Below, in pieces: positions 60,801-64,000 of a stretch of 64,000 nucleotides of DNA. The position numbers are program-made. Each line of letters starts with the position of its first letter. Within the stretch, counting starts at the first letter, position 1. The stretch lies in NCBI RefSeq assembly GCF_057098645.1, contig NZ_CM169472.1, one strand, 5' to 3'.

Positions 60801-63800
60801 TGCCCCCAGTCGTCCATGATCCGGGGGGTGATGTCACCGGGTCTGGTGGGGCGCTGGTAACCGCTAATAGGGGTCAGGTCAGGCACTTTTGCCGGGACCG
60901 TCTGTAACGTGGATGCCGGTACCTGCTCCCCGTGGTTATCTGGTTAACCCATATACAAGGGAGACAGAATGACCGAATCCAGCGATTACGAATCCGTCCA
61001 GGTCTTTATCGGCGTTGATGTCGGTAAAGATACGCATCACGCTGTAGCCATTAATCGTTCAGGTAAACGCCTGTTCGATAAAGCATTACCCAACGACGAA
61101 AACAAACTCAGGTCGCTAATATCTGACCTGAAACAACATGGTCAGATACTGCTGGTTGTTGATCAGCCAGCTACCATCGGTGCGTTACCTGTCGCCGTTG
61201 CCCGCTCAGAAGGAGTCCTTGTCGGATACCTCCCTGGACTGGCCATGCGCCGCATAGCCGACTTACACGCCGGTGAAGCTAAAACTGATGCTCGTGACGC
61301 TGCCATCATTGCCGAAGCTGCCCGTACCCTGCCTCACGCGCTACGCACGCTGAAACTGGCTGACGAGCAAATCGCCGAACTCTCCATGCTCTGCGGCTTC
61401 GATGATGATCTTGCCGCACAGACAACGCAGGCCAGCAACCGTATCCGCGGCCTTCTGACCCAGATACATCCGGCACTGGAGCGCGTTCTCGGTCCGAGAC
61501 TTGATCACCCGGCGGTACTCGATCTTCTCCAGCGATATCCCTCACCAGAAAAACTCGCTTCGCTGGGTGAGAAGAAGCTGGCAGCCCAGCTCTGCAAACT
61601 TGCGCCTCGTCTGGGTAAACGCCTTGCAGCAGACATAGCTCAGGCACTGGCCGAACAAACCGTCGTCGTTCCCGGCACGAATGCCGCTGCCGTAGTACTG
61701 CCACGTCTGGCACTCCAGCTCATCACGCTGCGTAAGCAAAGAGACGAGGTGGCGCTTGAGGTAGAACAGCGAGTTCTTGCTCACCCTCTTTACCCGGTCC
61801 TGACCAGTATGCCCGGAGTCGGTGTCAGGACCGCAGCCAGACTCCTCACCGAGGTCGCCTGCCGCGCCTTCGCCTCTGCCGCACATCTCGCTGCTTATGC
61901 TGGCCTTGCGCCGGTAACTCGGCGATCCGGCTCGTCAATACGCGGTGAGCATCCCTCGCGACGGGGTAATAAAGCTCTCAAACGGGCGTTGTTCCTGTCG
62001 GCCTTCGCCGCGCTCAGGGATCCGCTCTCCAGGGCTTACTACACCCGCAAAATGAGTCAGGGAAAACGACACAATCAGGCGCTTATCGCCCTGGCGAGAC
62101 GACGCTGCGACGTTCTGTTCGCCATGATGCGCGACGGGACTTTTTATACCCCGCAGGCGTCATAACATGCTTGACAACTTAATAGGGGCACCCCCCGGGG
62201 CGGGTCACAGTCCGATGATATCGTCTGCCCTGCCATGACCTCCGGACACCTCCGGCAGCGTCGGGTCCGGCATACCACCCGCCGCTTCACGAGCAGACTT
62301 TTGTCGATGGCATTCGGTACAGAGCGTCCAGAGATTCGTCTCCTCATTACCACCACCGAACTGAAGTGCAATTCGGTGATCGAGTTCACTGTCACAGAGG
62401 TCAACCACACGACCACAGAGACAGCACTGCCCGGCATCCCTGAGCCAGATATGACGCTTGAGGGAAACACGTGCACTGCCACTGACACGACGCTGTTCAC
62501 CCTTCAGAATATTCACCCGCCGGGTGTTCAGAGTTTTGATTCTGCCCGGTAACGTACGAAGCACAGCCATGTAAAATCCTCGCCATATAGCTTGTCACCA
62601 GAGGAAAGAAAATGTCATCGAAAAACCGGCCCCGCAGAACAACAACCCGCAACATCCGATTTCCAAACCAGATGATTGAACAAATTAACATCGCTCTTGA
62701 CCAGAAAGGTTCAGAAAATTTTTCTGCGTGGGTCATTGAATCTTGCCGCCGGGAGCTGGCAGCAGACATAAAATATGCCCGTCAGTTGACTATAAAAAAG
62801 AATGATACACAGTATGCTCTGCGATGGCTGTTCATATAACTATTTCTTTATATTGCTGAATTTATAAAAACTCACAGACATTAGCTGTATTAATTCCGAA
62901 TTGAAATAATCAGCCATATAGAATAAAAATAAAGCATAACAATAATAATCTTCTACCCAATCAGTACATTACTGCTGTGACTCCAACACGGCAGTTTTTT
63001 TATTGAACAGATTCCAGTTTCTTCCACCATCGCACCGGACGGGCGACCATGAGGGGAGAACGCCGCGCTCCGTTTACGCGGTAAACCCCGGTGTGTATCG
63101 TTTTTGATTATCCCCGCACACTCTCGCAGAGGAGTCTCCCTGTCGGGCTGCGGTCTCTGTTAATGCAGGAATACGGCGACGATACGGCGCATCAGCAAAA
63201 CTTAGTTCAGGCACTGAGTGCGGATATAGTCCTGTGCCCCTTCCAGCTGCTTCTGCATTGTCATCAACCGTTCTCTGAGGATGAAATAATCCCGTTCAGC
63301 GGTGTCTGCCAGTCGGGGGCCGGTTGCATTATCCACGCCGGAGGTGCCGGTGGCTTCACGCACGGTACCGGAGCAGGTGGCGTTGATCCGCAGGCGCTTA
63401 CGACCAGCGGCAACATCAGCACGCAGAGTTTCATTTTCAGCTCTCGCATCGGCTAACTCCCTCGAGTATTTTGCATCGAGCGCAGCAACATCACGCTGGC
63501 GCACCTGCATGTCAGTAATGGTGGCATTCGCCTGTTCCAGCTCTCTGGCTTTTTTATCGCGCTGCGCTTTGTAGGTGAGCGCGTTGTCACGGTAATGGTT
63601 TGTTGCCAGCCACAGCGCACCACAGCCAACCGCCAGGACAATAATCACCACACACAGAACACGGTTCATCTCTCTTTCACCCCACCAGTCCCGATAACGT
63701 CAGGACTCGCCAGGCGGTGGAAAAGAAAATGGCAACCAGCATGACTAAAAATGAAATGCCGACAAGTACACAGAGGCTCTTCACCAGCGTTATGAGTTTA

Positions 63801-64000
63801 TCTGATATCATTAGCCACCCCATCAATCCGCCTTTGTTATTTTCCCTTTGCCTGTATCAGCCAGGACAAAATCAATCAGCATATTCGCTTCATTTACCAG
63901 CGTACGGATTTTTGATACATGCGCGGCTTTAACCTGTTTCCACTCATTCAGCCCGGTAGCAAACACACTGGCAATGTTTTTATCCCGTTTCATGTCAGCA

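Follow-up and report, generated by a model that had tools for sequence, protein, structure and literature searches.

At the right-hand end of the window, a stretch of 64,000 nucleotides (nt) from NCBI RefSeq assembly GCF_057098645.1 (contig NZ_CM169472.1), the spanin genes Rz and Rz1 lie on the minus strand directly behind a small open reading frame (ORF), here called sm, whose predicted product crosses the membrane once. A first-pass annotation, which relied on hand translation close to the window edge, had regarded this ORF as unexpected and as translationally coupled to the partial ORF before it. Is sm a gene, is it new, and does a membrane peptide at this place take part in the lysis of the host cell? 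ORFs were listed and translated computationally on the minus strand of window positions 63150-64000, and sm and its surroundings were compared with those of related phages and prophages.

The small open reading frame ahead of Rz

The sm frame extends over window positions 63677..63823 (minus strand, as are the genes below unless stated) and counts 48 codons from its first ATG (63823-63821) to a stop at 63679-63677. The computational translation revealed no internal stop in the 48-codon frame and reproduced the hand translation, so that a single-transmembrane ORF of this length ahead of Rz stands as described. A second ATG (Met5) opens a 44-amino-acid (aa) form, MISDKL... (63677..63811), and corresponds to the position at which the other family members start. 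The predicted core of the transmembrane helix, residues 16-38 of the 48-aa form (63710..63778), was placed from hydropathy, invariant alignment columns and an AlphaFold model.

A 43-codon open frame of the composition of sm arose by chance in about 14% of shuffles, and the open frame by itself therefore proves nothing. That sm is a real gene follows instead from the conservation of its frame and from purifying selection across divergent copies. Among 208 sm-bearing loci gathered from IMG/VR and GenBank phages, 206 copies had exactly 42 codons after a conserved Met and no indel, although 30 haplotypes were distinguished at the DNA level with a divergence of up to 26%. The ratio of non-synonymous to synonymous polymorphism (pN/pS), summed over pairs, was 0.46 in frame versus 0.81 and 1.09 in the two alternative frames, and the most divergent pairs gave values of omega (dN/dS, the ratio of the corresponding substitution rates) of 0.24-0.32 (Fisher p = 0.0006-0.003). 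Invariant residues formed the motifs S-D-K-L-I, close to the N-terminus, and C-V-x-V-G-I-S-F, within the helix; a Trp close to the helix end was invariant as well. Judged by these sequence comparisons, sm is a genuine conserved coding gene.

The gene is not new. Its product is ORF50 of phage BP-4795 (YP_001449287), the 'hypothetical protein' WP_000539792 of the PGAP annotation and PHROG 4906 of 'unknown function'; the match to phrog_4906 (E = 1.5e-30) covers positions 1-49 of 49, and database proteins of 100% identity exist. The location of sm in the lambdoid late operon, past the endolysin gene and before Rz, is that of the PHROG 4906 family. Exactly the sm sequence was reported by Hücker et al. 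2017 (PMC5597208) as XECs191, a candidate novel small gene of O157:H7 strain Sakai, drawn there with a TTG, one codon before the ATG, as first codon (49 aa) and predicted to encode an inner-membrane protein with one transmembrane helix. In LB medium XECs191 gave a transcriptome value of 30.0 and a translatome value of 12.6 reads per kilobase per million (RPKM), a ribosome coverage value of 0.43 and a coverage of 0.55, and values were lower in BHI medium (PMC5597208). BP-4795 ORF50, WP_000539792, PHROG 4906 and XECs191 share with sm an identical 48-aa sequence and an identical position between ant and Rz, and no difference was seen. The same layout occurs in phages 933W, VT2-Sakai and BP-4795, and the description of the ORF as unexpected is thus to be dropped. 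Annotation has been uneven: sm is omitted in VT2-Sakai, the original 933W record shows only ant at this place, and one record mislabels a copy as 'Rz'. A literature search by accession number found no paper citing WP_000539792, YP_001449287 or phrog_4906, and a survey of lysis cassettes in Shiga toxin (Stx) phages (PMC8136144) makes no mention of sm.

DNA of sm was present in 1,748 of 5,426 complete Escherichia coli genomes (32%), at 4,650 places and in up to 11 copies per genome, as well as in most Stx phages of the collection. Both sm and the layout of its cassette are already known, and sm is a widespread, annotated and uncharacterised gene.

Cassette layout, start codon and the block linked with the Rz anchor

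The 851 bases of positions 63150-64000 were 99.9-100% identical to the Stx-converting phages BP-4795 and VT2-Sakai and to many Stx1a and Stx2a phages, and the same 99.9-100% identity was found in prophages of hundreds of complete E. coli genomes; the sm protein is also 100% identical in 933W. The window end is the cell-lysis region of a Stx-type lambdoid E. coli prophage. According to the annotation of the identical phages, the cassette consists of an S21-type class II holin gene (PF04971), YdfR/DUF1327, R, a 270-nt gap, ant, sm and Rz/Rz1, R being a 177-aa lysozyme (PF00959) encoded about 840 nt beyond the window edge. The suspicion that the cassette departs from the lambda S-R-Rz order was correct. 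The holin and endolysin families of these cassettes have been classed as pinholin and signal-anchor-release (SAR) endolysin (Pinto et al., PMC8136144). A YdfR/DUF1327 gene (positions 2410-2754 of locus L001) was present between holin and endolysin in about half of the related loci.

The partial ORF upstream of sm (63823..64000) enters from beyond the window edge and contributes its last 58 codons, with the C-terminus ...GKGKITKAD* (LADTGKGKITKAD) and a TGA stop at 63825-63823. It had been noted to resemble no endolysin, and this was confirmed: no muralytic domain was found in it, lysozyme R sits further upstream, and the fragment belongs to a 189-aa Ant-like protein, of which it is the C-terminal third; the gene start and the N-terminal P22_AR_N domain fall beyond the window edge. 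The fragment matched PHROG 524 'anti-repressor Ant' (E = 9e-20) and phrog_16011 (E = 6e-42), its DNA was 99.9-100% identical to that of BP-4795 ant and WP_001056806, and the full-length homologue (loci L001 and L002) matched PF10547 P22_AR_N (E = 1.4e-45) and PF10549 (ORF11CD3). Ant of P22 has about 300 aa, compared with the 189 aa of the Ant-like protein here.

Downstream of sm, Rz (63202..63669) encodes 155 aa with a hydrophobic N-terminus, matching PF03245 over residues 29-153 (E = 4.9e-50) and PHROG 13 'Rz-like spanin' (E = 1.6e-75); an N-terminal transmembrane segment is followed by a periplasmic domain, as in inner-membrane spanins (i-spanins). Rz1 (63264..63449), a 61-aa lipoprotein, is encoded entirely inside Rz, in the +1 frame (offset 220 nt), matched PF06085 (E = 1.7e-21) and PHROG 3198 (E = 1.7e-31), and has the lipobox V-S-A-C followed by G, not D, as in an outer-membrane spanin (o-spanin). 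By these sequence-level features Rz/Rz1 is an embedded two-component spanin, and the Pfam and PHROG matches together with the lipobox bear out the pair as first annotated. In VT2-Sakai an 86-aa ORF starting at the Rz 3' end, orf48 (positions 2287-2547 of locus L217), carries the RefSeq label 'Rz-like spanin'; this looks like an annotation slip, the embedded Rz1 and sm being unannotated there.

Comparison of the interval between R and Rz revealed that sm is its constant element while the upstream neighbours vary among ant189, Y, X and ant231-X'. Four architectures were distinguished: R-ant189-sm-Rz, R-Y-sm-Rz, R-X-sm-Y'-Rz and R-ant231(KilAC/ANT)-X'-sm-(Y')-Rz. In all cassettes examined that have Rz, sm lies between the endolysin gene and Rz; directly past it, Rz or Y'-Rz follows in about 98% of 205 loci and a methyltransferase-like ORF in 3 loci. 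X (PHROG 6632) and Y (PHROGs 1115, 4493 and 3246), all of them 'unknown', are small uncharacterised ORFs whose hydrophobic segment is C-terminal (L004 2816-2998, L008 2855-2998, L007 2861-2998 and, in Salmonella, L218 3501-3683), and neither matched Pfam. Homology between sm and Y was rejected, with an hhalign probability of 2.7%. In Salmonella prophages Y alone stands immediately before Rz, in cassettes with three holin/endolysin types, and one Salmonella cassette, S-R-ant188-Y-Rz, parallels that of the window. From R to Rz, the coding strand showed no promoter-like and no convincing terminator-like site.

The junction of sm with Rz (63670..63679) consists of the sm stop TGA (63677-63679) and seven bases, AAGAGAG (63670-63676), before the Rz ATG at 63669. 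With an anti-Shine-Dalgarno duplex of -6.8 kcal/mol, AAGAGAG is the ribosome-binding region of Rz, and the Rz Shine-Dalgarno sequence (SD) overlaps the end of sm. The junction has a second form. Loci L004 and L006, from phages that are otherwise near-identical, were compared: identity was about 100% up to about codon 27 of sm, collapsed over about 110 nt and then resumed at about 95%. The divergent block includes the final ~16 sm codons, crosses the junction and extends through the first ~17 codons of Rz, which encode its transmembrane segment; it lies at about 3090-3200 in L004, equivalent to about 63630-63725 in the window. Allele A has a 7-nt junction containing the SD, while allele B has an sm end of the form ...LFLSMAWMxLxSxGLxG*, a 13-nt junction that lacks an SD and an Rz start of the form MLSAFTVILL.... 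The association was perfect in 152 of 152 loci: all 89 loci with allele A of sm had Rz-A, and all 63 with allele B had Rz-B. The upstream partners reassort freely with both block alleles. The B-type Rz, with no recognisable SD and a start 13 nt past the sm stop (junctions of L006 and L007), suggests that its translation depends on the upstream ORF.

The start of sm itself was also compared. A one-base overlap, TGATG (63821..63825), joins the ant stop to the first ATG of sm, which share an A; the annotated coordinates in L001 and L002 likewise overlap by one base. In three other upstream contexts, sm starts at M-S-D-K-L, the equivalent of Met5, after an SD of its own (AAGGGAGGA, AAGAGG or AAGGGG), with anti-SD pairing of -7.1 to -11.3 kcal/mol; the sequences before the start are AAGGGAGGAttaagcATG in the L004-type context, AAGAGGtaaagATG in the L007-type and AAGGGGtagctATG in the L008-type. 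In the window the pairing of Met1 and Met5 is tied at -7.1 kcal/mol each. In L072 and L075, which belong to the ant-linked lineage, a TAG occupies codon 3 of the frame that begins with the ant-overlapping ATG, and Met5 is left as the sole usable start. Alignment suggests that ATGGGGTGGCTAATG of the window corresponds to AAGGGGTAGCTATG of the X-type context, where the TAG terminates the small ORF ahead of sm. The family-wide start is probably the second Met, giving a product of 43-44 aa, and since Met1 and Met5 pair equally and Met5 is the start elsewhere, the product in the window may be of 44 aa instead of 48. The overlap with ant is probably a feature of this lineage only. The one-base overlap that had been taken to couple sm to the preceding ORF is thus real, while coupling through TGATG, given the Met5 start elsewhere and the TAG in L072 and L075, is an inference.

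Possible roles of sm

The mean Kyte-Doolittle hydropathy over 19 residues peaked at 2.8 for residues 16-35 of sm, and AlphaFold returned a single helix, spanning residues 2-39 in the 44-aa form, at a mean predicted local distance difference test score (pLDDT) of 88.7; this modelled helix says nothing on function. A face of small residues runs along the helix within the invariant C18-V-x-V-G22-I-S24-F25 (C-x3-G-x-S). The basic N-terminus (K9 and K15) would favour an N-in/C-out topology with a periplasmic tail of about 10 residues.

Established classes of small lysis and membrane proteins did not accommodate sm. A holin or antiholin was rejected on the C-terminal tail, which is not charged (0-1 charge; MALTSAGLVG in other alleles), and no holin family of Pfam matched at E <= 0.1. 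A dual-start antiholin was rejected on the extension between Met1 and Met5, M-G-W-L, which is uncharged and is missing or interrupted in other lineages. A releasin was rejected on length (44-48 aa), on a differing topology and on the lack of a DUF2730 match in Pfam. No Pfam or NCBIfam family of Hok/Gef-type or other small toxic membrane peptides matched at E <= 0.1.

The reading that we prefer, tentatively and at not quite an even chance, is that sm is a genuine gene for a small protein of the inner membrane, belongs to the Q-dependent late (lysis) operon and encodes a dispensable accessory lysis factor whose preferred partner would be Rz. In its favour are the evidence that sm is a real gene, including good SDs in three independent upstream contexts and a weak transcript and RIBOseq signal in strain Sakai, the constant place of sm next to Rz under four different upstream partners, the divergent block shared with the Rz segment, the B-type Rz that lacks an SD, the unrelated Y in the same slot before Rz in Salmonella, and the single helix with its invariant face. 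Membership of the late operon is drawn from the tight packing of the genes and from the lack of promoter- or terminator-like sites between R and Rz noted above. According to this proposal, sm would be transcribed together with S, R, ant and Rz/Rz1 on the late transcript, and ribosomes would arrive at it either by re-initiation at the ant TGATG or at the Met5 start after GGGGTGG. The peptide would insert N-in/C-out into the inner membrane, and its translation would hand ribosomes on to Rz. The C-x3-G-x-S helix face may pair with another transmembrane segment, for which the N-terminal segment of Rz is the best guess, and in this way sm could tune the assembly or the timing of the spanins; it would not itself be a holin, an endolysin or a spanin.

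Several observations weigh against this proposal. Rz-like DNA was found at 13,126 places in the 5,426 genomes versus 4,650 for sm, so most Rz loci are without sm, and the K-12 prophage Qin also has none, its rrrQ overlapping rzpQ with no insert; sm is consequently not needed for spanin function. A divergent homologue, P0058, lies in a cassette that has no Rz before the terminase genes (L209, 1844-4322), which contains holin_8, holin_3_7 and a GH108 endolysin in addition to the order ANT231(KilAC-type)-X'-sm-51-aa lipoprotein; the lipoprotein has the lipobox LLVGC and belongs to PHROG 7528 (unknown function). Searches of Pfam and NCBIfam (E <= 0.1) and a profile search of PDB gave no match to sm and hence no annotated homologue, and in an exhaustive comparison of the sm profile with 1.84 billion representative proteins there were 29 matches, all of them the sm family or its fragments. 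The ribosome profiling (RIBOseq) signal of XECs191 is weak and near threshold, and its reads are ambiguous, since matching sequence occurs at 5-7 places in the O157 genomes of the collection. The linkage of the block alleles can be explained by physical adjacency alone, sm and the Rz segment being only 10-20 nt apart; as a pattern of sequence, the association fits co-adaptation of sm with the Rz anchor and plain linkage alike. In addition, the transmembrane segment of lambda Rz is regarded as a simple anchor.

Among other explanations, one that we regard as possible though unlikely is that sm is moron cargo, part of a mobile module (ant, X, Y and sm) inserted between R and Rz that has no lysis role and takes only its transcription from the lysis operon; modulation of host membrane proteins, superinfection exclusion or a toxic peptide are examples of what it might then do. 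The highly mosaic region, in which sm is accompanied by further small transmembrane ORFs and by Ant-type genes from two families that are unrelated to each other, P22_AR_N and KilAC/ANT, points this way, as do the sporadic distribution of sm (found in 32% of E. coli genomes, at most 11 times in one genome, and missing from K-12 Qin) and its occurrence in the cassette of L209 that lacks Rz. Some RNA and RIBOseq signal in uninduced cultures would also agree, but spontaneous induction would give the same low signal. Cargo of this kind is harder to reconcile with the absence of a promoter-like site before sm and with a position before Rz that stays constant while the upstream partners change, and Pfam, though not PADLOC, which was not searched, gave no match to defence or toxin families. 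We consider it improbable that sm regulates the pinholin and SAR-endolysin step in the manner of an antiholin or releasin, by binding the S21 pinholin or the R21 signal-anchor in the membrane. All E. coli loci examined do combine an S21-type holin (PF04971) with an R-type lysozyme (PF00959), Mu gp25 sets a precedent for an extra membrane protein that controls endolysin release, and P2 lysA, placed between endolysin and spanin genes, affects the timing of lysis, but sm is separated from S and R by ant, X or Y, and its homologue occurs with unrelated holins (holin_8 and holin_3_7) and a GH108 endolysin. The uncharged tail, the Met1-Met5 extension that adds no charge and the missing DUF2730 match argue against it as well.

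A further explanation gives sm no function as a peptide: translation through to the Rz start, by termination and reinitiation, would be what matters, replacing the R-Rz overlap of lambda that the insertions have broken. The distance of 7 or 13 nt from the sm stop to the Rz start, the absence of an own SD from the B-type Rz and the overlap of the Rz SD with the sm end would all suit such a leader. The constraint on the amino acid sequence (omega of 0.24-0.32, invariant motifs and constant length in 206 of 208 copies) goes beyond what a mere leader would need, and in the X-sm-Y'-Rz architecture another ORF separates sm from Rz; a leader function alone is thus quite improbable. Very improbable indeed is that sm is not a gene at all and that the frame in the ant-Rz spacer is open by chance. 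The frequency of such frames in shuffled sequence and the omission of sm from several reference annotations (VT2-Sakai and the original 933W record) would agree with it, but frame conservation and purifying selection, the strong SDs in other contexts and the RIBOseq candidate all speak for a gene.

Neighbouring genes, related systems and significance

Past Rz/Rz1, the identical phages carry a DUF3950 gene on the opposite strand, then an HNH gene and then the terminase genes. In the window the DUF3950 gene (YlcI/YnfO family; PHROG 949, unknown function) lies between Rz and HNH at 62612-62839, on the plus strand and so in the reverse orientation to the late operon. A 1,449-bp insertion sequence of the IS110 family (60742-62190), absent from BP-4795 at the equivalent site, is inserted 13 nt past the HNH gene (62205-62570, minus strand) and before the gene for the terminase small subunit (59900-60463, minus strand); its transposase (60969-62165, plus strand) matched PF01548 and PF02371.

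The cassette shares several features with those of lambda and phage 21. Its Rz/Rz1 are close relatives of the lambda pair (PF03245 and PF06085) and have the same embedded +1 architecture, and like phage 21 it has an S21-type holin and an endolysin R of the lysozyme family. It differs from both in that R and Rz do not overlap and are about 1 kb apart (the 270-nt gap, ant and sm), and in the YdfR/DUF1327 gene between S and R. By position, the nearest analogy to sm is lysA of P2, reportedly a non-essential membrane-protein gene between the endolysin and i-spanin genes that is held to modulate lysis timing. P2 LysA, of about 141 aa and with several transmembrane segments, is unrelated in sequence to sm. 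The X and Y ORFs of E. coli and Salmonella resemble sm as uncharacterised products of 31-60 aa with one hydrophobic segment, packed between the endolysin gene and Rz, but show no detectable homology to it, and their hydrophobic segment is C-terminal. The releasin gp25 of phage Mu, a 99-aa DUF2730 protein of N-out/C-in topology with a 73-aa acidic cytoplasmic domain, is encoded past the spanin genes (Chamblee et al. 2022, PMC9239132). Like sm it is a single-pass membrane accessory in a SAR-endolysin lysis cassette and is not a holin, an endolysin or a spanin, but sm, at 44-48 aa, has almost no soluble domain and no DUF2730 match.

The finding in the window is in itself ordinary, a known layout with an annotated hypothetical gene, and its remaining interest lies in a very common membrane protein of the Stx-phage lysis operon and in the unexplained linkage of its block with the Rz anchor. 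If sm is moron cargo, it adds one more small membrane protein without a known role; if it modulates the spanin or the holin step, it would be an added component in a lambdoid lysis pathway that has been regarded as fully enumerated. Shiga toxin exits the cell by phage-mediated lysis, so that whatever adjusts lysis in Stx phages also matters for burst size and for the release of the toxin. In its boldest form, which we consider doubtful, the proposal would hold that sm, and independently X and Y, constitute an unrecognised class of 'pre-Rz' single-pass membrane peptides that partner the i-spanin segment, set when or how the spanins fire and co-evolve with that segment as a two-allele block; such peptides, which most Stx phages and roughly one in three E. 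coli genomes would carry, would influence the release of Shiga toxin.

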